From an uncultured Bacteroidales bacterium (GTDB lineage: Bacteria; Bacteroidota; Bacteroidia; Bacteroidales; Muribaculaceae), in assembly GCA_902772965.1 (NCBI GenBank), contig CACYCT010000081.1, positions 3,076-67,075 on the forward strand: a stretch of 64,000 bases of DNA, given 5' to 3'. Positions within the stretch are counted from its first letter, which is position 1. Each line of letters begins with the position of its first letter. This document shows, one piece after another, positions 1-61,826 of this stretch. Below the pieces are notes generated by a model, which saw only the letters and a program-made list of their open reading frames with translations, searched no databases and was not told the DNA's origin. The position numbers were made by a program, and so were the translations under genes.

Positions 1-1007
1 CCTATTTGCCTGAATTGGAGAGTCTCAATTGCGCCCAAACCGGCCTTGAGACGCTTGAGCCGAGTTTGTGTCCCGACCTGACCACGCTTAACTGCGCCGG
101 CAATGGTATTTCGCGTCTCAACCTGAGCGCCAACACGAAACTCACACGCGTGATCGCCAATGGTAACCGAATTGCCGGAGAGCACTACGACTATCTGTTC
201 GACAAATTGCCCGAGCGCACCGGCAGCTGCTATCTCGACTTTTTCACCACCGCCACAGGTGAGACCAACGAGCAGCTCAGCTTCAAGCAGGCAGGCCTGC
301 TGAAAGAGAAAGGCTGGACAGCGCGCTACCAGACAGCCGGTTCGTCAGCGTGGCGTGAAGTGGCCGACTATGTGGCCATTAACTCCAACACCTTCCCCGA
401 CGCCAATTTCCGCAACTTCATGCTTGAGCAGTCGTATGGCACCGATGCCAGACTCTATTGGAGCGAGGTTAAGACAATCACCTCCCTCGGCGCGTGGCAG
501 CGGCAGATTACCTCCCTGGCGGGTGTCGAGTACCTGACGGAACTGGAAAGTCTTTACTGCCAAGAGAATCAGATCACCGAGTTGGATTTGAGCCAAAACC
601 TCCGCATAAGCAAGGTTTACTGCCACCTCAACAACATCTCCGCCGAAGCTCTCGACCGCCTCATCGCCAACCTCCCAGCGGCTGAGGACGGAATCATTAT
701 GTTCAAGAATGGCGACAGCGACCAGAACGTCATGCCCACCTCGGCCCAAGCCAGAAACGCGGCCGGAAAGAACTGGACTTTGCGCTACTGGAAAGGCAGC
801 ACTTGGGTCGATGTGCCCACATCATCCTTGTTGGGCGACATCAACCTCGACGGACGTGTCGACATCACCGACCTCAACCTCGTTGTCAACGCCGTGCTCT
901 CGAATCCCGGCTTGTCGGAATCCGGAGGAAACCCTGACCTTAACGGCGACAACAGAGTTGATGTGACCGACCTGAATATGATTATCAGTATCATTCTGAA
1001 CAACTGA
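1..1007 (+). CDS. Leucine-rich-repeat surface protein, 5'-truncated by the window edge, with a C-terminal dockerin-like module
   Basis: The frame is open back to nt 3 and the track start at 6 is TTG. It has LRR-like LxxLxCxxNxI units and an NSNTFPDANFRNFML module (nt 387-413) shared with the next gene. The last ~55 aa read DINLDGRVDITDLNLVVNAVL...DLNGDNRVDVTDLNMIISIIL, two DxNxDGxxDxxD segments typical of dockerins. Confidence 0.75.
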   Translation, partial: YLPELESLNCAQTGLETLEPSLCPDLTTLNCAGNGISRLNLSANTKLTRVIANGNRIAGEHYDYLFDKLPERTGSCYLDFFTTATGETNEQLSFKQAGLLKEKGWTARYQTAGSSAWREVADYVAINSNTFPDANFRNFMLEQSYGTDARLYWSEVKTITSLGAWQRQITSLAGVEYLTELESLYCQENQITELDLSQNLRISKVYCHLNNISAEALDRLIANLPAAEDGIIMFKNGDSDQNVMPTSAQARNAAGKNWTLRYWKGSTWVDVPTSSLLGDINLDGRVDITDLNLVVNAVLSNPGLSESGGNPDLNGDNRVDVTDLNMIISIILNN

Positions 1008-4600: not shown

Positions 4601-7340
4601 TTCAACTCTCGGTATAGATACCCTGATCAATTTACTACCCGAAGTCCCTTCAGCCCAACTATATGTTGACGACAACGTTAAAATGACCTCAAGTCAAGTG
4701 CTCGCAGCCAAAAACAAGGGGTGGACTGTAAATAGTGTCTATGGAGATGAATTCCAAGACGTTGACACAGGCATAGCCATTAATGAGGCAAACTTCCCTG
4801 ATGTCAAGTTCCGTACTTATTTGCTCAATCAGCCATATGGGCAGGATGCCTTGCTTCAAAATTCTGAAATCAGAGCAACTACCTCGTTAAACCTATCAAA
4901 TCAGGATATCACAAACCTGAAAGGTCTTGAGTATTTCAAAAACCTCAGAAATTTGGACTGCAGCGGCAATGACCGCTTGGAAACGATAGACTGTAGCAAC
5001 TTCGCACTGACAGAACTCAACATAGAAGGCTGCGCTTCGCTGAAAGCGCTTAGCACTTACGGAAACAAGTTGAGTGAAACCGCCATGAACAGCATCATCT
5101 CACAATTGCCTACAGTTGACACAGGAGAATATCTTGTTTGCCGTGATGGCAATACGGTTCTTGTTACCGCACAAGCCGACGTTGTTAGAGCTAAAGGTTG
5201 GACTCCAAAGTATTATGACAACCAGACCGGGCAATGGCTACCCTATGATGGTGTCGAAGATGCCGCACTTGAGATTAACGAAAGTAATTTCCCCGACGAG
5301 GCTTTCCGCAACTACCTGCTTGCTCAAGATTACGGTCAAGACGGTATCATCTCAGCGTTTGAGCGATTCAACCTTAAATATCTCAACGTTAGATCGAAAG
5401 GCATTTCTTCTCTATCCGGTATCGAACACTTCACTGAACTTGAATATTTAGTTTGCTTAAACAACAAACTGTCGAGCTTAGACCTGTCGGCACACAGCAA
5501 GTTGTTGCATCTGGATATTGGGTATAATCAATTCTCTTCATTAGATAACATTGCCGTTCTGAATCAGTTGCAATCTTTGCGCAATTTACGCTGCAACAAC
5601 AATCAGTTGACAGCCATCGATATCAGTCAATTGGCAGCTTTGGACACCCTTTATTGTCCTTACAACCAATTAACTACCCTTGCGCTTCAAAGCAATTCGT
5701 TGAAAGATTTGCGATGTGGCTATAACTTAATGACATCCTTAGACATTAGCCAGCTCACCGCCCTGGAGGTTCTGTATTGCCGAAATATCAACTTAACAAC
5801 TTTCGCACCTCAAAACAACACCTTAAAATATTTGGACTGCCAATATAACAAAATGACCTCCTTAGACATTAGCCAGCTCACCGCCCTGGAGAATCTATAT
5901 TGCAATAATAACAATTTAGCAACTTTCGCACCTCAAAACAACACCTTAAAATATTTGGACTGCAGTACTAATGGAATGAGCCAATTGGATGCCAGCAAGT
6001 GCCCTAAATTAGAAACTTTGCAATTTTACTCTGGTAACCCGAGTTTAGAACGTTTGAATGTCACGGGATGCACCGAACTGAAATACTTATTCTGTAGCCA
6101 TAACTCGAAATATCAAGCCGGAACAGTCACTACTGGAACCAGCGGAAAACTGGAACGGTTGGATCTTTCCACCAATGTGAAACTAATTGAGGTTGACTGC
6201 AGTGGGCACTTATTGAGTGAGTTGGATGTTCGAAACTGCAAAGACCTCAAAGTCCTGTGGTGCAATGCCAATAGACTGAAGAAATTGCGGGTAGACAACT
6301 GCACTAACCTGTCGGTACTTTTTGCTTGGGTTAATGAACTGGAAAGAGTGGATTTGAGTGGTTGCACCAACCTTGAGGTCTTAGACTTCTCGAATAATAA
6401 CTTCCAAACGATCGATTTGAGCAAAAACAAGGAATTGAGATACATCATCATCCACAACAATAGGTTGCCCAAGCTGGACGTTACCAACAACCCGAAGCTG
6501 ATGAATGTGAATTGTTCAAACAATCGCCTCAACTCGATTGACCTGTCTAAAAATTCCATCGATAGAACCCGACAGGTTTGGGCTTACGGTTCATTCCACC
6601 TGCCGGGCACCTCGCATGGCTTCAGCTGGGCTCCAAACGGCCGTACCATCAAAGCCGAGTGTGCGTTATTGCCCAAGGTTGTTAATGGTGAATATGTTTT
6701 AGACGAAAACGGTTGCGTCGTCTATGAGTCGTTATACTACCTGCGCCTGGACGACAACGTCAACACTGACGAGAGGAGTCTCTTGGGTCGAATGCTGGAG
6801 ACGGATGAGTCCGACTTCGATATAACTAAAGTTGACGAAAGTTCTTGGACAGGTGGTACTGTCTTCACCGGCACACGCGCTAAACGGATTTTAGGAGCTA
6901 ACAACCTGAAAGAAAAAGATGTTATCGGCAAAATATTGGTGCTAAACCCTGCTGCCGGCTCGGAGGAAAGCGGGACAGCAAGCGGCAGGGTGACATACAG
7001 ATATGTCACAGGCCATAACACTCCCGAACATTGGGCCAATTATGCCGCCGCTAATAACATCGACCTCAGTTCACCGGAGGGGCAACAAGCAATGGCTTGG
7101 ATAGACGATTCACCTACAGCCGAGGCTGTAAGTTGTTACATCAACTGGACTGCCGAAGTGGGTGTTATTACAGCTGTTGAGGACTTATATGAAGACAGAC
7201 CTCTTAAAGAAAAAGAGGTTGATTGCATCAAGTACTTCAACCTTTCGGGCCATTCCAGCAACCGTCCATTCAGCGGTCTCAACATTGTTGTGATTTATTA
7301 CAAAGACGGTTCGACCAGCGCCAGCAAGGTCTTCAAATAA
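1632..7340 (+). CDS. Giant (1902 aa) secreted leucine-rich-repeat protein, probable T9SS cargo
   Basis: Signal peptide MKRVFFNTVLALLAAMLSVLPLRAQ. Dozens of ~22-aa LxxLxCxxNxLxxLDxSxNxx repeats. Four NFPDxxFRxYL module heads and KGWT module ends. The C-terminus IKYFNLSGHSSNRPFSGLNIVVIYYKDGSTSASKVFK resembles a T9SS sorting domain. Confidence 0.9.
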   Translation: MKRVFFNTVLALLAAMLSVLPLRAQVVFNTTNFPDANFRQYLMDNFPDKGFTALDDTISSDNINTITSINCQSKNISNLKGIEYFTNLNYLNCSRNRLSSLNLSGCTALKNLYCNNNSLSTLNVSNCAALTTLHCYSNYLNSLDVSNLTSLTSLYCYSNQLTSLDVSNLSKLNYLYCNNNQLTSLDVSRNSSLLSLYCYQNKLETLSTGPNEKIQDLFCYNNQLTSLDLSLYLVLRRVNCSNNKLKALSVDYNGQLTELNCSNNQLTVLYLTHNSSLQNLNCSTNQLSTLDISPNTNLKNFDCSNNQLTDLSLASNRLLTSLTCSGNQLTTLDVSKNTSLNSLTCSNNQISLLDLSSNTLLNSLDCSNNLLETIAAKTVTTLNCSGNKITEVDFSGNTTINTIDISNNRISPTQMQLLVESLRTNTSTNSVFRVMSNTTELNVMTTSQVELAQSKGWTPLCGNNNTWTAYLGSDEALPINETNFPDPAFREYLKSLTVTLADGTTITPGSDSMLNATELYSITTINVPNNASNLNGIHLLSHVNTINCVGSSLEALELQSLYNFKKLNTSDCDNLSTVKLTGTQLERVSLNNCPALEEIVFGKSVSQVIINDCESLETLSISDKGVTSLQVSACPSLLTIDCSKNKLTALDITDHTSLITLNCSQNQIESLNVGSNRNLQTLNCSGNLLTTLDVAQNSLLRQLNCSQNNLETLDVGSNPLLTELKCNNNRLSTIDVTKLAKLAYFDFSYNILTSVDLSQNVALTDLICELNQLTVLDLTRNTELVRIICRNNASLTSIVGLPKNVSVLTVNGCSSLASLDCSNRKLRALNLSNCSSLVNVNCANNQISTLILENCSALKVLDCHGNALSSITNIAGLELDYLDCSANGISGLPRMSVKVLKCSTQSNSFSVYSINNNIDKNRLEELDVSNNVFGGSGNVVTIEGFPKLSRFEIRGCRFLSSIRCNSERLSYLDISDNYAIKSLSIQGSNFSTLGIDTLINLLPEVPSAQLYVDDNVKMTSSQVLAAKNKGWTVNSVYGDEFQDVDTGIAINEANFPDVKFRTYLLNQPYGQDALLQNSEIRATTSLNLSNQDITNLKGLEYFKNLRNLDCSGNDRLETIDCSNFALTELNIEGCASLKALSTYGNKLSETAMNSIISQLPTVDTGEYLVCRDGNTVLVTAQADVVRAKGWTPKYYDNQTGQWLPYDGVEDAALEINESNFPDEAFRNYLLAQDYGQDGIISAFERFNLKYLNVRSKGISSLSGIEHFTELEYLVCLNNKLSSLDLSAHSKLLHLDIGYNQFSSLDNIAVLNQLQSLRNLRCNNNQLTAIDISQLAALDTLYCPYNQLTTLALQSNSLKDLRCGYNLMTSLDISQLTALEVLYCRNINLTTFAPQNNTLKYLDCQYNKMTSLDISQLTALENLYCNNNNLATFAPQNNTLKYLDCSTNGMSQLDASKCPKLETLQFYSGNPSLERLNVTGCTELKYLFCSHNSKYQAGTVTTGTSGKLERLDLSTNVKLIEVDCSGHLLSELDVRNCKDLKVLWCNANRLKKLRVDNCTNLSVLFAWVNELERVDLSGCTNLEVLDFSNNNFQTIDLSKNKELRYIIIHNNRLPKLDVTNNPKLMNVNCSNNRLNSIDLSKNSIDRTRQVWAYGSFHLPGTSHGFSWAPNGRTIKAECALLPKVVNGEYVLDENGCVVYESLYYLRLDDNVNTDERSLLGRMLETDESDFDITKVDESSWTGGTVFTGTRAKRILGANNLKEKDVIGKILVLNPAAGSEESGTASGRVTYRYVTGHNTPEHWANYAAANNIDLSSPEGQQAMAWIDDSPTAEAVSCYINWTAEVGVITAVEDLYEDRPLKEKEVDCIKYFNLSGHSSNRPFSGLNIVVIYYKDGSTSASKVFK
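5730..5975 (+). repeat. Tandem 123-bp (41-codon) duplication inside the LRR gene
   Basis: 5730-5852 and 5853-5975 encode MTSLDISQLTALEVLYCRNINLTTFAPQNNTLKYLDCQYNK and MTSLDISQLTALENLYCNNNNLATFAPQNNTLKYLDCSTNG. Two long stretches are identical at the nucleotide level. Confidence 0.85.
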
Positions 7341-7690: not shown

Positions 7691-7835
7691 TTGTTGTGGA
7701 TTGGGGAGATTTGAGTTACTTGACGATGAACTTGCGTCCGTTTTGGATGTAGATTCCGGCGGGGAGTTTGTCGGTTGTCATCTTGCGTCCGAGCAGGTCG
7801 TAGATGGTGTTGTCGCCGGTTGTCGCGGTCTTGAC
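7662..7835. repeat. Copy B of the 174-bp direct repeat (functional gene tail plus terminator)
   Basis: See copy A. It covers the terminator and the last 39 codons plus stop of the 816-aa gene. Confidence 0.9.
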
Positions 7836-10166
7836 GGTTTCAACGGCGGTGAGGTCGTCGATGTCGTCAAGTGAGGCTGTTTGGGTTTCGTCGCCGTAGT
7901 GTACGTATTGGAGTTGGTCAAAGTAGATGTCGCCTTCCCATCCCATCTGGTCGTAGTCGAAGTCCTCATATTCCGAGACGTATCCGCGCCAGATCCAGAA
8001 GGCGTCGTATTTCCAGATGGATTCCACTAAGGTGACTGATCCGGAAACGGGGATGCATTCTTCATTGTTGACGTCCCAGGCGACTACTTCCCATCCGCGG
8101 TGGACGGGTTGCTTGGCGAATCGCTTCACGCCGTCGACTTGAGCGCGGATGCCGTGGCCGACATACATGTTGTCGATACCGTCGCCGTAGACGTATGCCT
8201 GAAGCACGGCGCCTTTCGAGTCAGTTAGATAGGGTCCGTTCTGGTCGGTTTTGCGGCAGTAGTTGCGCAATCCCCAGTAAGCGTCGGCGGTTTCGGGGTC
8301 AAACACGTAGTGGATGTGGTAACTTGAGGGTTGTGCCGGGTCGTGGACGAAGGTGGATTTCTCCATCAACTGGTCTTCCATAGTCGTGAAGCCTTTCGAT
8401 GATCCTGAGCCGCCGGGCGTGAACCATTCGGAGGAGTTGTATTCGCCGATGATGGGTTTGGCGCTTACCACGGTGCGGTATTCGGAGAGGAACTTGAAGG
8501 TTTTGGGTTCGGAAACGTTGCCGGCGAGGTCGGCGAATCCGCCTTTAACCTTGACTCTGAAGCACATGTCGCGTGGGAGGTCGGCGTTGAGGTAGTAGTG
8601 CAGCACGGACGCGTCGCGGACCACTGTGTGTGTCAGGCGGCCATCGTAGCGTTTTCCGTCTTTGTCTTCCAAGATGATGGCGTCAACGGCCTCGTCTTCG
8701 TTCCAGGCGAGTTCTTCGTTGTACTCAATGCGGATGATGGGCCGTTGTGTGTACATTTCGGTGGTGTTCTCAACGGGGGTTGTGCTTGTGATGTAGGGTG
8801 GTTCCACGTCGGCGGGGATGGTGGTGAAGGAGAACTGGTAGTTTCCGCCTTCCGTTCCGTCGTTGTCGCCGTCAAGGAATTGGTTGGTTTGGCTGTTCTT
8901 GGCGATGGAGCCGTCGATGGTGATGGTGTAGTCCATGTCTTCGAGCAGGTTTGCCACGTTGATTCGCAGGGTGTAGTCGTTGTCCCACGAGAGGGAAACT
9001 TTTCCGGCGTTGTTGATCGAGAATGCGTTTTCGACCGAGGTCTTGTCCATGTTGCGCGAGAAGACGATGATGATGTCGTTGCGCGTGTTCACTGCGTCGG
9101 GGTTGGTGACGTTGATCGATGACACGACGGCGGGAGCGTTACTTGTCAAGGCGATGTTGGCCCAAGTGACGTTGTCGCCCGAGAGGCCTTGCGGGTCGGT
9201 CTTCATCGTGATGGTTTGCGTTGCGGAGCCGAATCCCGGGCAGGAGTAGGTTACTTCGTATTGTTGTCCGGGCACGAGGTCTTCAAAGAGGAAGAAACCG
9301 TTGTGAACGAGGTCTTTCGCGCGCACGTATTTGCTGAACAGCGACTCGTATGTGTCGGTTACGATGGTGCGTCCGTTAACGGTGATGGAAGCGCCGTTGA
9401 GGGCTTGTCCGTTCTCGCTGTTGGTGACCACGCCTGCGAGCATCACCTTGTCGGGGCGTTCCAGACCGAGGTATTCCATTATGGAGCGGAACGTTCCGAA
9501 GGCCTCAAGGCGTTTGTAACTCTCGTTCATGTTGAGTGCCTGTTGCACGGGGTGGGTGTGGAATCCGCCCTCGGAGAGCAGCGAGGCCATGTTGGTGCGG
9601 CGGTTGACCGAGAGATAGGGGTAATGGTTGTCGTGGTTGTACACGTCGCCGTTGTAGAACACGCGGTCGTAGTAATTGCCGCGGGTTCCGGTGTTGTACA
9701 TCACGCCGGTGAGGTTGGGGCAGAGGATGTCGCCATAGCGTTTACCGCCGTTTGGCGTTTTCTCCACGTATTGTCCGTTGGCTTTCCAGCCGCCGAAGAG
9801 TGTGACGGTGGTGTTGGCGCCGTTGCCGGCGTCGGAGTGGATGGAGTAGAAGAAGTCGGCGCCCCAGGCGTTGGCCATGTCGGAGCGTTCTTCGAGCGAG
9901 ACGTTGTCGGTGTCGTCGTCACGCGTCATTTGAATGTTGGCTTCGGTTGCTGTGGTGAAGTCGAAGAGAAACTGGCGTGTGGCAAGTCCGACGCGGAGCA
10001 CCTTCTCGGCCTCGGTGTAGCCGTACATACCTGTGTTCTCGCGCATAGAGTGACCCGGGTCAATCCAGAGCTTGAAGTCACCCCATTCTTGCTTTTGCTG
10101 GGCCACTGCGCTCAGGGAAAGGGAGCATACGGCGGCCGCGATGATAAGTTTGCTGAGATTTTTCAT
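7716..10166 (-). CDS. Secreted N-acetylmuramoyl-L-alanine amidase-like multidomain protein with a T9SS C-terminal sorting domain
   Basis: Signal peptide MKNLSKLIIAAAVCSLSLSAVAQQ. N-terminal Amidase_3-like motifs (WIDPGHS...GYTEAEKVL...FYSIHSDAG). Central Ig-like/beta-sandwich region. Ends with a typical T9SS tail, DNTIYDLLGRKM...GIYIQNGRKFIVK. Confidence 0.85.
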   Translation of the reverse strand: MKNLSKLIIAAAVCSLSLSAVAQQKQEWGDFKLWIDPGHSMRENTGMYGYTEAEKVLRVGLATRQFLFDFTTATEANIQMTRDDDTDNVSLEERSDMANAWGADFFYSIHSDAGNGANTTVTLFGGWKANGQYVEKTPNGGKRYGDILCPNLTGVMYNTGTRGNYYDRVFYNGDVYNHDNHYPYLSVNRRTNMASLLSEGGFHTHPVQQALNMNESYKRLEAFGTFRSIMEYLGLERPDKVMLAGVVTNSENGQALNGASITVNGRTIVTDTYESLFSKYVRAKDLVHNGFFLFEDLVPGQQYEVTYSCPGFGSATQTITMKTDPQGLSGDNVTWANIALTSNAPAVVSSINVTNPDAVNTRNDIIIVFSRNMDKTSVENAFSINNAGKVSLSWDNDYTLRINVANLLEDMDYTITIDGSIAKNSQTNQFLDGDNDGTEGGNYQFSFTTIPADVEPPYITSTTPVENTTEMYTQRPIIRIEYNEELAWNEDEAVDAIILEDKDGKRYDGRLTHTVVRDASVLHYYLNADLPRDMCFRVKVKGGFADLAGNVSEPKTFKFLSEYRTVVSAKPIIGEYNSSEWFTPGGSGSSKGFTTMEDQLMEKSTFVHDPAQPSSYHIHYVFDPETADAYWGLRNYCRKTDQNGPYLTDSKGAVLQAYVYGDGIDNMYVGHGIRAQVDGVKRFAKQPVHRGWEVVAWDVNNEECIPVSGSVTLVESIWKYDAFWIWRGYVSEYEDFDYDQMGWEGDIYFDQLQYVHYGDETQTASLDDIDDLTAVETVKTATTGDNTIYDLLGRKMTTDKLPAGIYIQNGRKFIVK

Positions 10167-10178
10167 GACTGCTCGGTT

Positions 10179-11030
10179 TTATTTTAGGTCAATAACATAG
10201 ATACATCCGTCGACGTCGTTGTCGAAGGCGAGTTTACTTCCGTCGGGTGAGACGGCGATGGTGATGGGAATCGCGTCGGTTGAGGGGGTGATGCAGGTGG
10301 CCTCGCCGGAGGCGATGTTCAGGCAGAAGATGTCGCTCCGGGTGAACACGTCGCCGTTGTCCTCAATGCGGGTGATCATCAGGTTCTGTCCGTCGGGCAT
10401 CCATGTGGGGTGGGAGCCGCGACCGAGTGATTTCAGGCCTGTTCCGTCGGTATTGCACACAAACAGTCCTTTACCGACGATTTGGAACGCGATTCGGCTT
10501 CCGTCGGGCGAGAGGGCGGGGTTGAGCACCATCCGGCCGGCGTACTCGTTCAGGCCGGCGATGAGCGTTGTCGCTTTGTCCGGCTGGTCAAGCATGGTGT
10601 TCAGTGTGTTTGAACTGCGAGAGAGCACGCGCGAAGGTTTGTGGTCGCGCACTTCCGGCTCAACCGACTGTACTTTTCCCGTGCGGGCGTCGATGCGCTC
10701 AACGCGGGTCATGCGGCGGTTATGCAGCATGGAGTAAGGGGTGGAGATGAGTTGTCTGCTGCCCGACCAACTCATACGGAATCCCGCGCCGGTGGCGTCA
10801 GACACTTTCTTCAACTCGGAACCGTCGGCATTTGCCACGTAGATTCCCACGAAGTTGTCGCCCGTGACGGCAATCATCTGTCCGTCGGGCGACCACACAG
10901 GAGCCATCAGGCCCGTGTCGGTGGCCTTGATCAGCAAGCGGGGCTGACTGAACGAACTTGGCTGCGCAATCGCGCTTCCACACGTCAGCAGCAGCGCTGC
11001 GGCAAGTAGTAGTTTACTTTTCATGCTCAT
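10179..11030 (-). CDS. TolB-like beta-propeller (PD40 repeat) periplasmic protein
   Basis: Signal peptide, plus repeated SPDGxxIA/LAF motifs (SPDGQMIAV, SPDGSRIAF, SPDGSKLAF) typical of WD40-like PD40 repeats. Confidence 0.7.
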   Translation of the reverse strand: MSMKSKLLLAAALLLTCGSAIAQPSSFSQPRLLIKATDTGLMAPVWSPDGQMIAVTGDNFVGIYVANADGSELKKVSDATGAGFRMSWSGSRQLISTPYSMLHNRRMTRVERIDARTGKVQSVEPEVRDHKPSRVLSRSSNTLNTMLDQPDKATTLIAGLNEYAGRMVLNPALSPDGSRIAFQIVGKGLFVCNTDGTGLKSLGRGSHPTWMPDGQNLMITRIEDNGDVFTRSDIFCLNIASGEATCITPSTDAIPITIAVSPDGSKLAFDNDVDGCIYVIDLK

Positions 11031-22662: not shown

Positions 22663-22716
22663 TTAGTCGTTATTCAGTTCGTCACCCATGCGATACTTGA
22701 TGTCGTAGTTATTCAT
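22663..22716 (-). pseudogene. Orphan 17-codon gene tail (MNNYDIKYRMGDELNND*), a duplicate of the tail of the 217-aa ORF
   Basis: Hand translation of the minus strand. 12 of 17 residues match IINYDIKYHMGDELNIK* (23734-23787), with the same distance to the stop. A 17-nt identical core TACTTGATGTCGTAGTT occurs at 22694-22710 and 23765-23781. It overlaps the rhuM stop codon. Confidence 0.5.
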
Positions 22717-23725
22717 CTTTTTCGTGGTTGTCTTTGTCTCCATTTGTCTTTTTTCCTCTTTTACTCAGTTGTTTGATTGTCTCAAAATAGGCCTGTTCAA
22801 CAGGCGAGAGATTGTGTTGCCGCCAAATGTCATATTCTTTCTTGGCTTTGAGCAATGCATCGGCATGGCTAATAGAACCGGCATCGGTCAGCAATTCCTG
22901 ACCGGTAGATGTAAGGATAGTGTCGAGTTGGTGGATATAGTCAGCCATATACATTGGTTGGCGTCGCATGGCTTGAATCTCTGCGAAATCAAAGTATCCT
23001 GAGACAAGGTTGTTAAGGATTTTGAGTTCGTTGTCGGTAAGATAATTTTTTGCAACACGTGTATCTTGCAGTGTGGGCCAGTCACCTTTGAAAGTGGTCA
23101 GTCCCATAAACGGCTTGGTGCTGTCGGCACGGTTATAAATCACCTCTGCAGCTGTACTTCCGTGAGCGGCATAGTGCAGTTTGTTTTGCACAATTTTAAA
23201 GAATGTTATCGATAAGTCACTATGTGGGTCATAGTCGACAGATGTGGCATAAAGGTCAAGCACTTGGCGATATAGCACACGTTCAGATGAACGTATATCA
23301 CGAATGCGGTCAAGGAGTTCTTTCCAATATCCGCCGCCACCCAGCTGTTTAAGACGCTCGTCGTCCATAGTGAACCCCTTGATGATGTACTCCTTAAGAC
23401 GTTCCGTAGCCCAACGTCGGAAGTGAGTTGCGATGAGCGACCTCACCCTGTAACCCAACGAGATGATCATGTCAAGGTTATAGTGACTCACCTGATAAGA
23501 TTTTCCATCAGCGGCAGTTGTTCGGAATTTCCGAACAACTGAGTTCCGCTTAAGTTCGCCTTCTTCAAAGATATGCTTAATGTGCTCACTAATATTTGAT
23601 TTGCTTGTTTTATATAACTCACAGAGTTGGCTTTGCGTGAGCCAAACGGTTTCAAGTTCAACACGCACCTCAATATGAGTTTTGCCGTCCTCGCTTTGAT
23701 AGATAATAATATCGTTATTTTCCAT
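22709..23725 (-). CDS. rhuM: RhuM-family protein
   Basis: 338 aa. The N-terminus IIIYQSEDGKTHIEVRVELETVWLTQSQLCELYKTSKSNISEHIKHIFEEGEL and YNLDMIISLGYRVRS..ATHFRRWATERLKEYIIKGF are recognised from memory as the RhuM family pattern. Confidence 0.8.
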   Translation of the reverse strand: MENNDIIIYQSEDGKTHIEVRVELETVWLTQSQLCELYKTSKSNISEHIKHIFEEGELKRNSVVRKFRTTAADGKSYQVSHYNLDMIISLGYRVRSLIATHFRRWATERLKEYIIKGFTMDDERLKQLGGGGYWKELLDRIRDIRSSERVLYRQVLDLYATSVDYDPHSDLSITFFKIVQNKLHYAAHGSTAAEVIYNRADSTKPFMGLTTFKGDWPTLQDTRVAKNYLTDNELKILNNLVSGYFDFAEIQAMRRQPMYMADYIHQLDTILTSTGQELLTDAGSISHADALLKAKKEYDIWRQHNLSPVEQAYFETIKQLSKRGKKTNGDKDNHEKDE

Positions 23726-23733
23726 AATTGTTT

Positions 23734-24387
23734 TTATTTGATGTTTAACTCATCGCCCATGTGGTACTTGATGTCGTAGTTGATGATCAAATCAAGTTCC
23801 TCCTCAGATAGTGAGAATAGATTAGCAATAATCGAATCAAGTTTATCAATTATAACTTTTGATTTCTTAGGATAGTACTCGTAATAGGTTGCGTTTCTAC
23901 CAGTCGATTTGTAAAAAGTATCTTTCCGAAATTTTTTGTTTTCATAATCATCAAATAGAGAATGACCTGCAGCAATTAAATCTTTGTCTTTTGCAAGCGA
24001 GGTGGAAAGTTGTCGAAGGACAAATTCATCTTTGGCAGTTGGAATTCCGATCTGTAGTTGTTTGCGGAATGCTATGGCCATTTTGACTTTCTGCTTGCGG
24101 ACAAAGTCACTATCGGGTAATGGATCGTCGGAACTATAAAGCATCTTTAACAATTCTTCCTTGGCTTGTTGCATACCAACCAGAAGCCGACATGTTCGTA
24201 ATTTACGGTCCCCATTTTCATCGACATATGCCCCAGCGAGATTTTCAATTTCGTTGAAAATCATACCCCAACCACGCAAATTGAAGTAGCCAACGCAGAA
24301 ATCAGCGCGTGTTGCACTATGACTTGAAAGATAACCTTTCAAACCGTCAGTGAATTTGCTGTTGATATTGTCGTAAAGTTTAGCCAT
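23734..24387 (-). CDS. 217-aa ORF: N-terminal fragment of a PLD-domain/helicase-type protein joined to a short C-terminal tail (internally deleted or fused remnant)
   Basis: aa 1-135 (MAKLYDNINSKFTDGLKGYL...RADFCVGYFNLRGW...RTCRLLVGM...) match, from memory, the N-terminus of ~1000-aa PLD-like SNF2-type helicases. The HKD motif and the whole helicase core are absent. The ORF ends with ...LSEEELDLIINYDIKYHMGDELNIK. Confidence 0.6.
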   Translation of the reverse strand: MAKLYDNINSKFTDGLKGYLSSHSATRADFCVGYFNLRGWGMIFNEIENLAGAYVDENGDRKLRTCRLLVGMQQAKEELLKMLYSSDDPLPDSDFVRKQKVKMAIAFRKQLQIGIPTAKDEFVLRQLSTSLAKDKDLIAAGHSLFDDYENKKFRKDTFYKSTGRNATYYEYYPKKSKVIIDKLDSIIANLFSLSEEELDLIINYDIKYHMGDELNIK

Positions 24388-24604
24388 ATCTTATTAATAG
24401 TGAACAGAGTTAAGGCTTATGCTTTTGATTTGACTGATTTTTCCTGAATGAGGTAAATAGTGTTAATCAAAATGATTGACAAAAGTAAGGATTTTCCCTG
24501 ATTCCTGCAAGTTTTTGGGGGTGATGAGGTAAAAAACACCTGATCAAGCCTGATTAAGTGGGTGGCGGGTTACGGTTCGCGTTCGGCGGTGGTTCTATTT
24601 CAGG

Positions 24605-25519
24605 TTATGGTTTTTCTTTCCGGTTACGCGGGTGGAACTGGAGTATTTGCTGGCGGAGGCGGGTGCGGTCGATGTGGACGTAGATTTCTGTGGTTGAGAT
24701 GTTCTCGTGCCCGAGCATTTGCTGGATGGCCCGGAGGTTGGCTCCGCCTTCGAGCAGGTGGGTGGCAAAGGAGTGGCGGAGTGTGTGGGGGCTGACGTTT
24801 TTGGTGATTCCGGCGAGTTCGCAGAGGCGTTTGATTATGATGAAAATCATTTGTCGGGTGAGCCGCCCTCCGCGCCGGTTGAGGAAGATGGTGTTTGCGG
24901 CTTCGGGTTTTGCGATGATGTTGGCCCGGACTTGTGTGAGGTAGTTGTCAATCAGCAGTAGTGCCTGGTCGCTGATGGGTACGATGCGTTGCTTGTCTCC
25001 TTTTCCCTGAACGCGGATGTAGTTTTCTTGCCTTTGAATGTCACCGAGTTGCAGGTTGACGAGTTCGCTCACCCGCAGTCCGCATGAGTAGATGGTTTCG
25101 ATGATGGCCTGGTTGCGAATGCCTTCCGGTGTTGTGGTGTCGATGGCGTTGATGATGTCGTCGATCTGGCGCACGGAGAGCACCTCGGGCAGGTGTCGTC
25201 CCTGTTGCGGCGGTTCGATGAGCAGTGTGGGGTTTTCGTGTGTGACTCCTTCGATGGTAAGGAACTTGTAGAATGCCTTGATTCCGGAGATGATTCGCGC
25301 CTGTGAGCGGGGGCTGATTCCGAGGTCCCGGATGTCGCCGAGGAATTGCTCGATTTGTTCTGTGGTGGCGTTTTCGACCGGTGTGTCGCCGAGGTAGTCG
25401 GTGAGTTTGTCGATGTCCTGCCGGTAGGCGAGGGCGGTGTTTGGCGCGAGTGCTTTTTCGACGCGGAGGTAGATGTCGAACTGCTGTTTAATGTCGTTGA
25501 TGTTGTGTTGGGCCGGCAT
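24605..25519 (-). CDS. xerD: Tyrosine recombinase XerD-like
   Basis: 304 aa with an N-terminal SAM-like core-binding domain (YLRVEKALAPNTALAYRQDIDKL). C-terminal catalytic residues ...GLRVSEL..., HTLRHSFATHLLEGGANLRAIQQMLGHENISTTEIYVH. Confidence 0.85.
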   Translation of the reverse strand: MPAQHNINDIKQQFDIYLRVEKALAPNTALAYRQDIDKLTDYLGDTPVENATTEQIEQFLGDIRDLGISPRSQARIISGIKAFYKFLTIEGVTHENPTLLIEPPQQGRHLPEVLSVRQIDDIINAIDTTTPEGIRNQAIIETIYSCGLRVSELVNLQLGDIQRQENYIRVQGKGDKQRIVPISDQALLLIDNYLTQVRANIIAKPEAANTIFLNRRGGRLTRQMIFIIIKRLCELAGITKNVSPHTLRHSFATHLLEGGANLRAIQQMLGHENISTTEIYVHIDRTRLRQQILQFHPRNRKEKP

Positions 25520-27045
25520 TATTGGCTGACGATGGCGCAGGTGACAGTTTGCGGTTTGTTGCGGTTGAAGTTGTTGGTGAAGGTGGCTGTTTGCGCTTGT
25601 GTGTCGATGACTATGTCGGTTGCGCTGATCCAGTTGACATATTGCAGTTGGATGTGCAGTTTGGTTGGGGTTGTCCAGGCGTAGGTGGCCGCGGTGGCGA
25701 AGTTGTGCTTCAGTCCGGAGAAACGGTTTCTGGCGGTGATGACGTAGGGTGGGGTGGTTGTGGTGAGCGCGCCGTAGGCCCAGCGGTTGTATGCCACGGG
25801 AATGGTTTCGTCGCGTGTGTCGGTGTAGTAGATGCGGAGTTGGTTTTGTCCGTTTTCGGTGTAGAATTTGATCAGGTCGATGTTGTGGTCGTTTTTGGCG
25901 AGTTTGAAGTCGGCGTGGGTGAACGCGTTGGAGGTGGGTTTTCCTTTGGGCATGGGCAGGGCCGCTTTGGCGGCAACCTGTTCAAGGGTTTTGAGTTGGT
26001 TCTTGTTTTCCGGTATGGGCGAGTCTATTCCGGGGTAGAGGTAGGCGGGAATGCATGCGAGTTCGTCGGCTGTCTTGTCGGAACTTCCGAGGATTACGAC
26101 AACGGTTTCGGTTGCGGGGTCGATGACGACAAATTGTCCGTATGCACCGTCAAGCCGGTATGCGCCGGGTTTGAGGCAGCGCCAGAGTTGGTAGCCGTAT
26201 CCCTGGTTTTTCTCTGTTGGCTTTTGCAGTGCGGCGCCGTCGTAATTGATGTATGGCTTGGTGCATTCGTCAATCCATGCCTCGGAGATGAGTTGGCGTC
26301 CTTCCCATTGTCCCCGTTGGAGCATGAGGATTCCGATTTTGGCGAGCGATTCGGCCTGCATTCTCAGTCCCCATCCTCCGGTGCAGATGCCGTCGGGGCT
26401 GAGTTCCCATTCTGCCTCATAGATGTGCATGGGGCCGAAGAGGTGCTGGTTGAGTAGTTGGAGCACGGTTTTTCCGGTGGCTTTCTGTACGATGGCGGAG
26501 AGCATGAAGGTGCACATCGAGTCGTATTGGAATCGTGTTCCGGGTTTTGATGTGACGGGTTTTGCGAGCCATTCCCTGATCCAGTCGTCGCCGAAGGAGC
26601 GCATTTCCCAGTCGGGTTTGATTCCGGAAGCCATGATGAGCAGGTCTTTTACTGTGATGGACGCGAGTTCAGGTGTGACTTTTTCGGGTAGTTTGGCGGG
26701 GAAGAATGTGACTATCCGGTCGGAGGTGGAGAGTCGGTTCTGGCTTATTGCGATTCCGACGGCGAGTGCTGTGAGTGTCTTGCTTGCTGAGAAGAGGGTG
26801 TGGCTGTCGGTTGCCCGGTAGGGGGCCGGGTGGCATTCCGCGACGACGCGTCCGTTCCGGACAACCATGAGGTGGTGTATCTCGGTTGCCGGCAGTGCCT
26901 GGATGGATTCGAAGAAACGCTGGATGGCTCTGGAACTGATCCGTTCGGCCTCGGGTGTGCTGCGCGGCAGGTCGCCCACTTGTGCGTGGGTGGCGGAAGT
27001 GGAGAGGAGGCAGATGAGTGCGAGCAGGGACAGTAGGCGTTTCAT
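25519..27045 (-). CDS. Secreted serine hydrolase (beta-lactamase/PBP4-like family)
   Basis: Signal peptide MKRLLSLLALICLLSTSATHAQ. SxxK motif FSASKTLTA. Length and pattern match class C beta-lactamase-related hydrolases. Confidence 0.8.
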   Translation of the reverse strand: MKRLLSLLALICLLSTSATHAQVGDLPRSTPEAERISSRAIQRFFESIQALPATEIHHLMVVRNGRVVAECHPAPYRATDSHTLFSASKTLTALAVGIAISQNRLSTSDRIVTFFPAKLPEKVTPELASITVKDLLIMASGIKPDWEMRSFGDDWIREWLAKPVTSKPGTRFQYDSMCTFMLSAIVQKATGKTVLQLLNQHLFGPMHIYEAEWELSPDGICTGGWGLRMQAESLAKIGILMLQRGQWEGRQLISEAWIDECTKPYINYDGAALQKPTEKNQGYGYQLWRCLKPGAYRLDGAYGQFVVIDPATETVVVILGSSDKTADELACIPAYLYPGIDSPIPENKNQLKTLEQVAAKAALPMPKGKPTSNAFTHADFKLAKNDHNIDLIKFYTENGQNQLRIYYTDTRDETIPVAYNRWAYGALTTTTPPYVITARNRFSGLKHNFATAATYAWTTPTKLHIQLQYVNWISATDIVIDTQAQTATFTNNFNRNKPQTVTCAIVSQ

Positions 27046-59378: not shown

Positions 59379-59464
59379 GTTCCACGTGTTCCATCTGTTC
59401 CAACGTTCCATCTGTTCCAACGTTCCATGTGTTCCACTTGTTCCATGTGTTCCGCTTGTTCCGG
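59379..59464 (+). repeat. Array 1: 10 tandem 8-9-bp units with a GTTCC core
   Basis: Units: gttccacgt gttccatct gttccaac gttccatct gttccaac gttccatgt gttccactt gttccatgt gttccgctt gttccgg. Spacings are 9,9,8,9,8,9,9,9,9. Confidence 0.95.
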
Positions 59465-59578
59465 ACTACGATTTCATCTGTGAGATACTATCAATTTACA
59501 GTTAATGCCGGAATGGCACCTCTACCCGCCGTATCATGCGATGATTCCATATTCCCGTGACCTGAGGGCGACATCTTT

Positions 59579-59638
59579 GGAACATCCGGAACACGCGGAA
59601 CAAGTGGAACAACGGAACAGCGGAACAGGCGGAACACG
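59579..59638 (-). repeat. Array 2: 7 tandem units, inverted relative to array 1 (GGAAC on the plus strand)
   Basis: Units: ggaacatcc ggaacacgc ggaacaagt ggaacaac ggaacagc ggaacaggc ggaacacgc. A 114-bp spacer separates it from array 1. An isolated GTTCC lies at 59694-59698. Confidence 0.95.
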
Positions 59639-59767
59639 CATGGGGTGTGATTTGTAACCGACTGGTATTCAAATGCGTGTGACGCGTCTGCGTGTTCCGC
59701 CCGCTTTGTGACACACCTGTGTGTACCCGACTTTAAATTGATATGGACAGGCATCGGTCCACCGACG

Positions 59768-59775
59768 TAATTTTG
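59768..59775 (+). promoter_or_regulatory. -7 box TAATTTTG upstream of the cassette ATPase gene
   Basis: Matches TAnnTTTG, 58 nt upstream of the ATG at 59833 and 130 nt downstream of array 2. Confidence 0.45.
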
Positions 59776-59832
59776 CAGCGTCGAGACACACACGCCTTGA
59801 CTTTCGTTAACCTTAACCTTTAATCCAATCAC

Positions 59833-60828
59833 ATGATGAACAACCAACAAAATCAAGCCCTTGCCTCAGCAGGGACTCAGGGCGGCGGCATTTCAGCAGC
59901 CGACTACCTCGCCCGCATGAAACAGAAAGAGATCCACACCTCAGGCTCGATGATCATGACGGTGAACGACACGCTTCGCGTCGCACGTCGCAAACCGCAG
60001 GCCGAAGACCTCTGGAACGGTATGGTGTTTGAGCGAGAGTGCACCGTGATCTTCAGCGACTCGAACGTGGGTAAGTCCATCTTGGCCGTTCAAATCGGTG
60101 TGAGCATCGCCAAAAGCGGGCGTAACGTGCTCTACATGGACTACGAGATGAGCGACCTCCAGTTCGCGGCACGATACACCAACCCCTACAACAAGCAGTT
60201 CTACCACTTCCCCGACAACTTCTTCCGTGCCGAGCAGCATGCCGATGCCCTGCAGGTTGACCCTATCGAGAACATCAAGGAATGTATCGGAGCGGTGGCG
60301 GCCGATGTCGTGATTATCGACAACATCACCTGGCTGGCCAACGAAACCGAGAGCGGAGACGTTGCCGGACGACTGATGATGGAACTGATCCAACTCAAGC
60401 GCAAGGCCGGACTGACCCTGATCATCATCGCCCACACGCCTAAACGCCCACTCGGGCAGATTCTCACGCAGAACGACCTCGGCGGATCCAAGAAAATCAT
60501 GAACTTTGTCGACTGCGCCATAGGGCTGGCCAAGTGCGTGTTCAAACCCGAGATGCGGTACCTCAAAAACATCAAGAACCGTTCGGCATCAATCGTCTAC
60601 GGTAGCAACCACGTCTGGCTTTGCGAACTGGTCACTACCGAGAACTTCTGCCACTTCGCATTCACCGGTACGGCCGACGAGTTGCAGGTGCTCAAACCGT
60701 ATGACGCCAAGCGCGAGCAACTTGAGGCCGATGTCAAGCGTATGCACAATCAGGGACACACGCAACGTTTCATAGCGCAGCAGCTCGGCGTCGGACTCGC
60801 GACCGTAAACCGCATTCTGAACGGATAA
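59833..60828 (+). CDS. RecA/DnaB-like (AAA_25/RepA-type) P-loop ATPase with a C-terminal helix-turn-helix
   Basis: Walker A FSDSNVGKS and Walker B VVIIDNITW. The pattern LTLIIIAHTPK is typical of RepA/AAA_25 proteins (from memory). The last ~30 aa, GHTQRFIAQQLGVGLATVNRILNG, look like a resolvase/sigma-region-4-type HTH. Confidence 0.8.
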   Translation: MMNNQQNQALASAGTQGGGISAADYLARMKQKEIHTSGSMIMTVNDTLRVARRKPQAEDLWNGMVFERECTVIFSDSNVGKSILAVQIGVSIAKSGRNVLYMDYEMSDLQFAARYTNPYNKQFYHFPDNFFRAEQHADALQVDPIENIKECIGAVAADVVIIDNITWLANETESGDVAGRLMMELIQLKRKAGLTLIIIAHTPKRPLGQILTQNDLGGSKKIMNFVDCAIGLAKCVFKPEMRYLKNIKNRSASIVYGSNHVWLCELVTTENFCHFAFTGTADELQVLKPYDAKREQLEADVKRMHNQGHTQRFIAQQLGVGLATVNRILNG

Positions 60829-60834
60829 CCGCCT

Positions 60835-60918
60835 GTTCCGCTGTTCCAATGTTCAGTCTGTTCCGGGTGTTCCGCGTGTTCCAAAGTTCCGCGTGTTCCA
60901 TCTTTCCGGGGTTGGAAC
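60835..60918 (+). repeat. Array 3: 8 GTTCC-core units (one degenerate) plus one inverted unit, filling the ORF1-ORF2 intergenic gap
   Basis: Units: gttccgct gttccaat gttcagtct gttccgggt gttccgcgt gttccaaa gttccgcgt gttccatct, then tttcc and an inverted ggaac (60914-60918). It starts 6 nt after the ORF1 stop and ends 38 nt before the ORF2 ATG. Confidence 0.9.
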
Positions 60919-60955
60919 ACGCCGAACGCCCGGAAACCATAAAACACCAATAACC

Positions 60956-61633
60956 ATGAAATACAATTTTCCCACCGACGACGATTTCTACAACGACTTC
61001 GCCGCCATAAAAACCTGCCACGGCAACACCGCCGAAATCATAGCGCTTTACCGGCAATCGTCAGCCACCGACACCGACCTGTTCGGACAATCCCTGATCG
61101 ACCGCTTCCCGGAACGCACCATCGCCGTCGTGGCCAATCCCCAAACCGCGCTTCTGGCCGCTCTGGAACGGCCCAGATACAGAAATGAGGAAATCCTCTG
61201 GGTCGCCACCTGCAACGAAATGCTCACCGAAGACCACCTCGCTCCGCTGTTGCACCGCAAGATTGACTTCTGGCCCACCGCCCGACAATTCAACCAATGG
61301 GAGCATCTGGTCTACCTCATCGACACCAATTACCTGAGTTTCTTCAAATACACATATGTGTGCGACGTATTCGTAACCTTCCAAGCGTATGCCGACCGGT
61401 TCGCTCCGCAATTCGCACGCTTGGCCAAGCCTGACGCCGACATAAGTACGGTATTGTCGCTACCGGACTTGTTGAGACAGTTGTTTTTCAGCACCATCTT
61501 CTCGTGTCTGCGCACTCACTTTCTGAGTTGCACCTGTCGAATGACTTGGTTTGAGCGGTTAATGCTCATGTCGGAAGCCCAAATAGCCTATGAGCAATTC
61601 CGTCTCGAAGCGCTGGTGCCTTTCACCGATTAA
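60956..61633 (+). CDS. Hypothetical 225-aa protein (orphan; faint degenerate Toprim-like pattern)
   Basis: Start set at MKYNFPTDDDF, since the upstream extension in the track reads through the repeat array. No confident family. ERTIAVVANPQTALLAA...ILWVAT...KIDFWPTARQFNQW faintly recalls Toprim-like domains next to AAA_25 genes in Bacteroidales, but lacks the acidic catalytic residues. Confidence 0.6.
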   Translation: MKYNFPTDDDFYNDFAAIKTCHGNTAEIIALYRQSSATDTDLFGQSLIDRFPERTIAVVANPQTALLAALERPRYRNEEILWVATCNEMLTEDHLAPLLHRKIDFWPTARQFNQWEHLVYLIDTNYLSFFKYTYVCDVFVTFQAYADRFAPQFARLAKPDADISTVLSLPDLLRQLFFSTIFSCLRTHFLSCTCRMTWFERLMLMSEAQIAYEQFRLEALVPFTD

Positions 61634-61740
61634 CAACCGGCTCCCGAACCTAAGCCCGAGCCGAAACCCGCGAGGAAGTATCTCCCTCGCCGGAAAGCCG
61701 TTTTGCCCGATGGCACCACTCCGGTCGGAAGGTGACACGT

Positions 61741-61826
61741 GGAACAGCGGAACAAGTGGAACACACGGAACAGCGGAACAAGTGGAACACACGGAATAGC
61801 GGAACAAGTGGAACACACGGAACATC
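61741..61826 (-). repeat. Array 4: 10 tandem units (GGAAC on the plus strand) with a 26-bp higher-order repeat x3
   Basis: (ggaacagc ggaacaagt ggaacacac) x3, with one GGAAT variant, plus ggaacatc. It is inverted relative to arrays 1 and 3 and ends 23 nt before the aguB stop codon. Confidence 0.95.

Follow-up and report, generated by a model that had tools for sequence, protein, structure and literature searches.

The window examined here is a 64-kb stretch of DNA from an uncultured Bacteroidales bacterium of the Muribaculaceae (contig CACYCT010000081.1, positions 3,076 to 67,075), with an average guanine-plus-cytosine (GC) content of 54%. Between the genes aguB and dcd we observed a cassette of two open reading frames (ORF1 and ORF2) accompanied by four dense arrays (A1 to A4) of a short repeated unit with the core GTTCC. 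Core counts and Tandem Repeats Finder both located the four arrays where an earlier note on this DNA had placed them, and a recount changed its total of about 37 copies to 34 perfect cores, or about 39 with degenerate ones included, all within 59379-61823. The unit consensus was T-G-T-T-C-C-(A/G)-c-n, with neighbouring cores 8 or 9 bp apart; the core pentamer was perfect in 34 units and the flanking positions were variable.

The first array, A1 (59379-59462, plus strand), contained 10 direct TGTTCC(A/G) units, all with perfect GTTCC cores, at a period of 8-9 bp (core-to-core spacings of 9/9/8/9/8/9/9/9/9), and delimited the inserted DNA on the left, as judged from insert size against an empty site in a relative (locus L179, see below). 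It was separated from the opposed array A2 by a spacer (59463-59578), which had been noted earlier as 114 bp and which measured 116 bp. The start of this spacer (~60 bp, 59460-59519) was the most AT-rich part of the region in a GC profile, at 38-40% GC compared with 54% for the window. A2 (59579-59635, minus strand) consisted of seven inverted GGAACA units convergent with A1, and a solitary GTTCC unit (59694-59698, plus strand) was observed between A2 and the promoter of ORF1. The third array started 7 bp past the stop codon of ORF1, with a direct part (60835-60899, plus strand) of seven perfect cores plus two degenerate ones (TGTTCAG at 60851 and TTTCC at 60904) and an opposed part (60912-60937) of one perfect GGAACA plus the degenerate CGAACG and GGAAAC. 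It covered most of the 127-bp gap between ORF1 and ORF2, although not the whole gap as had been claimed. A4 (61741-61823, minus strand) contained inverted units, nine with perfect cores and one degenerate (GGAAT), and delimited the insertion on the right, with the aguB stop codon ~25 bp away. Tandem Repeats Finder reported a 26-bp (three-unit) super-period within A4 at 96% identity. At a larger scale, ORF1 was bracketed by an inverted repeat formed by A2 and A3 (58 nt, 84% complementarity), and A1 and A4 formed another (78 nt, 71% complementarity).

Elsewhere in the window GTTCC/GGAAC occurred at 2.5 per kb on both strands, and no further 500-bp bin was enriched, in agreement with the earlier statement that the 64 kb hold no comparable cluster. 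The pattern GTTCCNNNNGTTCC (GTTCCN4GTTCC) was matched 19 times in the window, each time within the arrays, compared with an expectation of 0.18 +/- 0.41 from 100 dinucleotide shuffles. A search of Rfam at E <= 1 found no structured RNA match in 58.5-62.5 kb. An array of clustered regularly interspaced short palindromic repeats (CRISPR) was rejected, as it had been before, because the units abut at 8-9 bp without spacers while CRISPR arrays have repeats of 23-50 bp and unique spacers. A coding repeat was also rejected for the window, the arrays being intergenic. Two unrelated tandem repeats were observed far from the cassette, one of 63 bp in 2.9 copies (2017-2196) and one of 123 bp in 2 copies that were 90% identical (5721-5963), both of which probably encode repeat proteins.

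ORF1 (59833-60828, plus strand) encodes 331 aa, with a RecA-fold ring-ATPase domain at residues ~57-255 and a helix-turn-helix (HTH) domain at residues ~292-330; the earlier description as an ATPase plus HTH was borne out by Pfam, an AlphaFold2 (AF2) model and Foldseek alike. Pfam matches were to AAA_25 (3e-15) and, at the C-terminus, HTH_7 (2e-4), and KaiC-type ATPase models were matched as well. In a family alignment ORF1 kept 35 of 35 family-invariant residues, including K81 of the Walker A motif (SDSNVGKS), D163/N164 and H201-T-P-K-R205. The HTH forms a three-helix bundle with the recognition helix LATVNRILN. A profile of 24 ORF1 homologues matched the T7 gp4 helicase domain, RadA and DnaB in the PDB. 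The AF2 model, with a predicted local distance difference test (pLDDT) score of 85, matched RadA, Twinkle, T4 gp41, DnaB and T7 gp4 in Foldseek at ~1e-12 (best 1.7e-12), and KaiC equally well. ORF1 thus has the RecA-fold core, Walker A/B motifs and basic residues of the superfamily 4 (SF4) DnaB/gp4-like ring helicases, and helicase activity is predicted from its model and sequence. Upstream of ORF1 we found a promoter element (59768-59775, plus strand), TAATTTTG followed by CAG, which fits the Bacteroidota -7 consensus TAnnTTTG; a scan for sigma-70 promoters and terminators was not applicable, since Bacteroidota promoters differ.

ORF2 (60956-61633, plus strand) encodes 225 aa and corresponds to the C-terminal half of a Zn-ribbon/DUF6371/Toprim-like partner protein. 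Its only Pfam match was a partial one to DUF6371, with scarcely any close relatives, and in a comparison with a profile built from the downstream partners of ORF1 homologues it matched positions 184-336 of 356 only. The full-length partners, of ~350 aa, contain an N-terminal Zn_ribbon_16, the DUF6371 domain and a C-terminal half with the conserved motifs VALVESEKTA, WLATGGK, FPDxDG and DIAD, and genes of this kind have been annotated as 'topoisomerase-primase' (PMC13597742). We observed no Zn ribbon in ORF2, and VANPQTA and WPTARQ replace the family motifs VESEKTA and FPDxDG. The features of a Toprim/DnaG-like primase (Zn ribbon, conserved Glu, DxD) are therefore absent from ORF2, which would be catalytically dead if the DUF6371 family are primases. 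The AF2 model of ORF2 was weak (pLDDT 61.6), and a PDB profile search for the ORF2 family came back empty.

The comparison of the aguB/dcd junction that the earlier note had proposed was made in a survey of 80 metagenomic loci whose dCMP deaminase is 72-86% identical to that of the window. The dcd-S41 peptidase pair was conserved in these loci, with no ORF1 or ORF2 nearby. One of the relatives, L179, has an empty site with the order aguA, aguB, 164 bp, dcd, S41, compared with an aguB-dcd gap of 2643 bp in the window. The extra DNA of ~2.45-2.48 kb equals the span from A1 to A4; the insertion point is known by size only, since L179 (75-79% identical) has diverged too far in its intergenic sequence for an alignment. 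Look-ups of the exact aguB and dcd proteins gave no record of a same-species empty site, and no flanking direct repeat or target-site duplication was found at the cassette. A tblastn search of the window with a Tn4555-like mob protein gave no match to a relaxase. The only tyrosine recombinase of the window is Xer-like (304 aa, 24605-25519) and lies 34 kb from the cassette, in a region (22709-27045) that also encodes a RhuM-family gene, a 217-aa ORF without a Pfam match and a beta-lactamase-fold protein, with no apparent link to the cassette. Two sister strains (L001 and L002, 99% identical) carry the cassette at the same site, with 6 units in A4 compared with 10 in the window. The 58-bp segment between ORF2 and A4 in the window (61677-61734) is unrelated to the sister-strain sequence, where its place is taken by 476 bp of lower GC (L001 1518-1993; L002 2153-2628) with a 119-aa minus-strand ORF predicted to contain two transmembrane stretches.

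Homologues of ORF1 with the same architecture numbered more than 2271. We surveyed 80 loci from named Bacteroidota genomes, and in most of them a DUF6371 gene came directly after the ORF1 homologue. The usual order began with a tyrosine integrase and a hypothetical gene, followed by one or two genes of the HTH_17 (excisionase) type; then came the ORF1 homologue, its Zn-ribbon/DUF6371 neighbour and cargo, for example Dnd-type defence genes. In a plasmid database the pair was found on Tn4555-like cfxA circles that also carry mob, integrase and excisionase genes. From these integrase, mob and excisionase contexts the module can be placed in the backbone of integrative mobilizable elements of the Bacteroides type. 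The cassette, which the earlier note could not assign to any described element, can thus be assigned to their AAA-ATPase/DUF6371 gene pair.

A cluster of short repeats was also a feature of the family, starting 1-20 bp past the ORF1 stop codon. Fifty-seven percent of the 76 loci used in this statistic contained a single 5-mer five or more times within the 140 bp past the stop, compared with 4.4% of background windows (p = 2e-21). Same-orientation neighbours were most often spaced by 9 bp, with 8 bp the next peak, and 32 of 45 clusters contained two opposed sets with a single orientation switch, typically 3 + 3. On a Tn4555-like cfxA circle, for instance, the 3' end of the ORF1 homologue carries three TGTCCCA units, 13 bp and three TGGGACA units. 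A3 occupies this family-wide conserved position 3' of ORF1.

The repeated motif differed among lineages (TGGGACA, CTGGACA, TGTTCAC, GGTAACA, TGAAACA, TGAATCA, CCATAGTC, ACACCTG and others) and varied in step with the recognition helix of the HTH. The helix SKSxVxR was paired with TGGGACA, SKSRIQQ with CTGGACA, S(L/V)GxVNKY with TGTTCAC, SFSKVNR with CCATAGTC and ATVNR with G(G/A)AACA, the last including the window itself (LATVNRI with GGAACA). With the ATPase domain controlled for, motif and recognition helix gave a partial r of 0.31 (0.03 for the reverse), a correlation that indicates direction only, since the pairwise values are non-independent. Taken together, the conserved position, the 8-9 bp phasing, the opposed sets and the co-varying motif are what would be expected of cognate sites for the HTH of an oligomeric protein.

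We also asked how closely the arrays are tied to homologues of the two genes, as the earlier note had suggested. This held among the first 180 fetched loci, where TGTTCC arrays were found only in sister copies of the window element. It did not hold for viral contigs, where the pattern TGTTCCN3TGTTCCN3TGTTCC occurred at more than 120 loci, none of them with ORF1 or ORF2 homologues. In 95 of 120 the repeats lay within long ORFs encoding collagen-like Gly-Thr/Ser-x repeats. Since these viral repeats are mostly collagen-like coding sequence without ORF1 homologues, the bare TGTTCC pattern is not diagnostic. A coding overlap of another kind was observed in the family, in that the ORF1 frame of several homologues reads through the iteron cluster (L099, CP103138.1, 1005-1070; also L046, L050, L056, L057, L070 and the Tn4555-like cfxA element). 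The TGTCCCA/TGGGACA units are there translated into a low-complexity tail, VPSVPLSQP...GTMGQDGT, and such tails of annotated AAA ATPases are probably incidental products of the sites in the DNA.

Outside the window's own element, the six best matches to ORF1 were 46-49% identical, and the three of these that were examined (L003, L097 and L098, 47-49%) make up, together with the window, a rare four-lineage clade in which every cassette occupies a different chromosomal site. The cassette lies between a TonB-dependent receptor and an esterase in L003/L011, between a 168-aa gene and polA in L097/L181, and beside an AAA_14 gene in L098; L007 was rejected as a further context for an identical cassette, since its site proved to be that of L003. 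The L003, L097 and L098 cassettes were accompanied by neither an integrase nor an HTH_17 or mob gene. Their ORF2 is short (186-193 aa) with the substituted motifs VVANxxTA and PTARQxxQW. In each of them GTCCAG or GTCCC units, 10-15 altogether, make up a cluster upstream of the promoter and another, convergent with it, between ORF1 and ORF2, compared with the 34-39 units and the extra A4 of the window. A TTTGCAG element ~55-70 bp upstream of the ATG was shared by L003 and L097; the available L098 sequence stops short of this position.

Several further features were observed around these related cassettes. In L097 (3768-4704, compared with L181 3516-3553) an 899-bp insertion carries a HepT toxin gene and its presumed MNT partner, flanked by a 38-bp direct repeat, the end of which coincides exactly with the upstream cluster's first iteron, with one inverted iteron-like GGGGACA at the left junction. 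These junctions suggest that array edges are sites of cargo gain. The ORF1-ORF2 gap of L097 contains, past its GTCCC iterons (6010-6130), a tandem (A)GTAGTA(G/A) repeated ~7 times and a CTTAACTCC-like unit repeated ~4 times. In L003 a perfect 82-bp palindrome lies past ORF2 (7757-7838), with a half-copy elsewhere in L011, and the stretch from the upstream iterons to the promoter contains a segment of ~230 bp bounded by a 25-nt inverted repeat (~5628-5858). These features, with coordinates that also include L003 5602-5639 and L011 1379-1470, resemble small dispersed palindromic repeats or repeats like miniature inverted-repeat transposable elements. A PDDEXK_2 + HTH_Rpn_C gene (Rpn/YhgA-like recombination-promoting nuclease) is located 1.5 kb past the L003 cassette (9224-10234) and was not found beside the other cassettes.

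We consider it likely that the arrays are the cognate binding sites (iterons or operators) of the C-terminal HTH of ORF1, which would be a self-loading helicase-initiator, and that the cassette is a stripped-down module of the Tn4555/NBU type. The window would then hold a rare derivative of ~2.45 kb with its own promoter, without int, xis or mob, in which the iterons have been amplified about fivefold over four positions. The earlier proposal that the arrays serve the HTH of ORF1 as iterons or operators thus gains strong comparative support from position, 8-9 bp period and the joint change of motif and helix; binding, origin activity and regulation are inferred. As in an iteron origin, regular short repeats lie beside a putative initiator gene and appear, by comparative evidence, to co-vary with its HTH. 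The family-wide pattern is explained less well by any of the four rivals considered below, namely a domesticated regulator, an inert remnant, a transposon-like element and a partition system.

The cassette might work as follows. Oligomers of ORF1 would bind the units through their HTH tails, assembling on the opposed A1 and A2 and on A3. Melting and helicase loading could take place in the AT-richer part of the 116-bp spacer, a candidate unwinding region, or at the A3 junction, with priming supplied by the host or by a co-resident element. Occupancy of A1 and A2, upstream of the promoter, may lead to autoregulation, and the surplus arrays A3 and A4 may titrate or pair the initiator in the manner of the control iterons of iteron plasmids.

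Several observations weigh against this reading. The cassette and its flanks contained no integrase and no HTH_17/excisionase gene, no att repeats were found at the cassette, and none of 27 whole contigs with homologues had the terminal overlap of a circle; given the lack of integrase, att repeats and circles, it is doubtful which molecule other than the chromosome an origin here would replicate. No primase is evident in the cassette, since neither the Zn ribbon nor the conserved E and DxD residues are present in ORF2. The Toprim label of the full-length partners itself derives solely from the register of their motifs. The ORF2 model had no significant Foldseek match in the PDB, and in an hhalign comparison with an approximate DnaG Toprim segment the expected motifs aligned at a probability of 0.04. 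The AT-richness of the A1-A2 spacer is mild and its GC dip modest, and the pairwise correlations between motif and helix are inflated through shared ancestry. A4 has no counterpart in L003, L097 or L098, which lack a right-end array.

A different account, to which we give a small share of belief, makes the cassette a free-standing, integrase-less mini-module bounded by iterons, with the arrays serving as insert edges and as sites of insertion and cargo exchange, or else a host-kept iteron 'sink' with a matching initiator directed against mobilizable transposons of the same specificity (incompatibility-based immunity). The free-standing form draws on the 119-aa ORF beside A4 in the sister strains and on the HepT/MNT block at the first iteron in L097.

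It is likewise unlikely that ORF1 is a domesticated regulator, no longer an initiator, with arrays that act as operators to repress ORF1, ORF2 and adjacent cargo promoters in a regulatory or addiction-like module. Each array does lie upstream of a transcription unit (A1/A2 of ORF1, A3 of ORF2 and A4 of the sister-strain 119-aa ORF), the primase partner appears dead, and all the mini-cassettes have acquired an upstream cluster near a conserved promoter. However, ORF1 retains every invariant ATPase residue, which a plain repressor would not need, and A2 ends ~130 bp upstream of the -7 box and not over it. The 10-17 sites are far above the need of an operator, and the cluster at the A3 position is older than the mini-clade and is present where, as in many loci, the two genes overlap or abut, so that no promoter is required.

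We regard as quite improbable an inert remnant of a decayed integrative element, whose arrays expanded through slippage during replication and are now without a role. The missing integrase and mob genes, the truncated ORF2 without catalytic residues and the recent block duplication in A4 (its super-period, and 10 units against 6 in the sister strains) would all fit such decay. Yet ORF1 is intact, and the pentamer core has stayed perfect in 34 units despite variable flanks. The truncated ORF2 is found in all four lineages, across ORF1 proteins only 46-49% identical, and keeps its own motifs (VVANxxTA, WVATG, PTARQxxQW), which argues for long purifying selection. As this truncated ORF2 is shared and still ~30% identical, the mini-cassette is an old maintained lineage and not a product of fresh decay. 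Furthermore, the flanks of the window and L097 cassettes are intact housekeeping genes with less than 200 bp of extra DNA.

There is little to recommend a transposon-like element with A1 and A4 as multi-site terminal inverted repeats comparable to Tn7 or Mu ends, ORF1 as an IstB/TnsC-like helper and ORF2 as a recombinase that has escaped recognition. In its favour, A1 lies inverted relative to A4 at the edges of a ~2.45-kb insertion, related cassettes occupy unrelated sites with no integrase, and ORF1 had a weak NCBIfam match to IstB (E = 0.003). Of the earlier suggestion that A1 and A4 resemble composite terminal repeats, the inversion stood; the likeness is one of geometry only, since the repeats of the wider family are internal, its elements move by tyrosine integrases, and neither a transposase nor a target-site duplication was found at the window locus. 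Domain searches gave no DDE, serine or tyrosine recombinase/transposase signature in ORF1 or ORF2, ORF2 is a homologue of the primase-like partner's C-terminal half, and L003, L097 and L098 have no array at the right end. A partition system, also raised in the earlier note, with the arrays as centromere and ORF1 as segregation ATPase or adaptor, is hardly credible despite the resemblance of dense short repeats to the omega, parH and parC centromeres and a weak, below-threshold Pfam match of ORF1 to CbiA/ParA (E = 7e-4), since ORF1 groups in fold and sequence with the DnaB/gp4/RadA/KaiC rings and not with ParA, its conserved partner is primase-like, and the family resides in integrative elements that do not need partition.

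Parts of this picture are known already, namely the gene pair as an annotation in Bacteroides mobilizable transposons and the combination of a helicase with an iteron origin in the pathogenicity islands of Staphylococcus aureus (SaPIs), P4 and plasmids. In the literature covered, which was limited, we found no account of the iteron cluster or origin of this family, of its specificity code or of the integrase-less mini-cassettes with their apparently dead primase relative and amplified arrays. A sequence-specific helicase-initiator would give a concrete role to the 'AAA ATPase + primase-like' pair of thousands of Bacteroidota elements, including carriers of cfxA, and could explain why helicase- and primase-like genes are needed for element circles to appear. 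The motif/helix pairs would form a natural specificity table that could predict incompatibility and cross-talk and could supply orthogonal replication parts for gut Bacteroidales. The persistence of the mini-cassette in several lineages calls for a function, for example as a source of local over-replication, as a regulator or by interfering with related elements.

The closest relatives of the cassette by homology are Tn4555, NBU1/NBU2 and MTnBf8, with which it shares homologous proteins (ORF1 38-45% identity) and the order of ATPase then DUF6371 gene. The genes of MTnBf8 include DUF3853, a P-loop/RecA AAA protein (359 aa), a Topoisomerase-primase (319 aa) and mobN1 (PMC13597742). The window cassette differs from these elements in having no int, xis/HTH_17 or mob/oriT, in an ORF2 that represents only the C-terminal half without acidic motifs, and in repeats that are amplified and duplicated both upstream and downstream. 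In NBU1, excision requires Orf2, Orf2x, Orf3 and PrmN1.

The closest functional parallel was with the SaPIs and other phage-inducible chromosomal islands. The SaPI Rep is a self-loading helicase-initiator, an AAA+ SF3/MCM-like helicase with a winged-helix C-terminal domain that recognises penta- or hexanucleotide iterons with a specificity that varies among islands, and its origin has 6-12 iterons directly 3' of rep, in two opposed halves around a central region, with an adjacent primase gene (PMC9371898). The repeats directly 3' of the helicase ORF in opposed sets (A3 and 32 of 45 family clusters) resemble this arrangement, as do the predicted C-terminal DNA-binding domain of ORF1 and, in the wider family, the adjacent primase-like gene and the integrase-bearing island. 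In contrast, ORF1 is a RecA-fold, SF4-like AAA_25 ATPase with a resolvase-type, HTH_7-like tail, and in the window 34-39 units are spread over four arrays, the primase is apparently dead and an integrase is missing. The proteins are unrelated, so the resemblance is a functional parallel and not homology.

Phage P4, an integrative satellite, provides a similar case, in that the C-terminal domain of its alpha protein binds octamer-scale repeats in two clusters (ori and crr). Short repeats in separated clusters beside a helicase-initiator are common to P4 and the cassette; alpha, however, is a fused primase and SF3 helicase of other folds, and domain searches detected no homology. In plasmids, the flanking iterons of P1 incC-repA-incA and F ori2-repE-incC act as origin, autoregulatory operator and titration/handcuffing control, the iterons are 17-22 bp long, and winged-helix Rep proteins recruit a separate helicase. 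RSF1010 (IncQ) divides the work among the RepA helicase, which belongs to the AAA_25/DnaB-like class, the iteron binder RepC and the primase RepB'. The cassette is like the iteron plasmids in having its putative initiator gene flanked by arrays, and differs from them in its units of 8-9 bp, in a predicted binder fused to a helicase-like ATPase and in its chromosomal locus.

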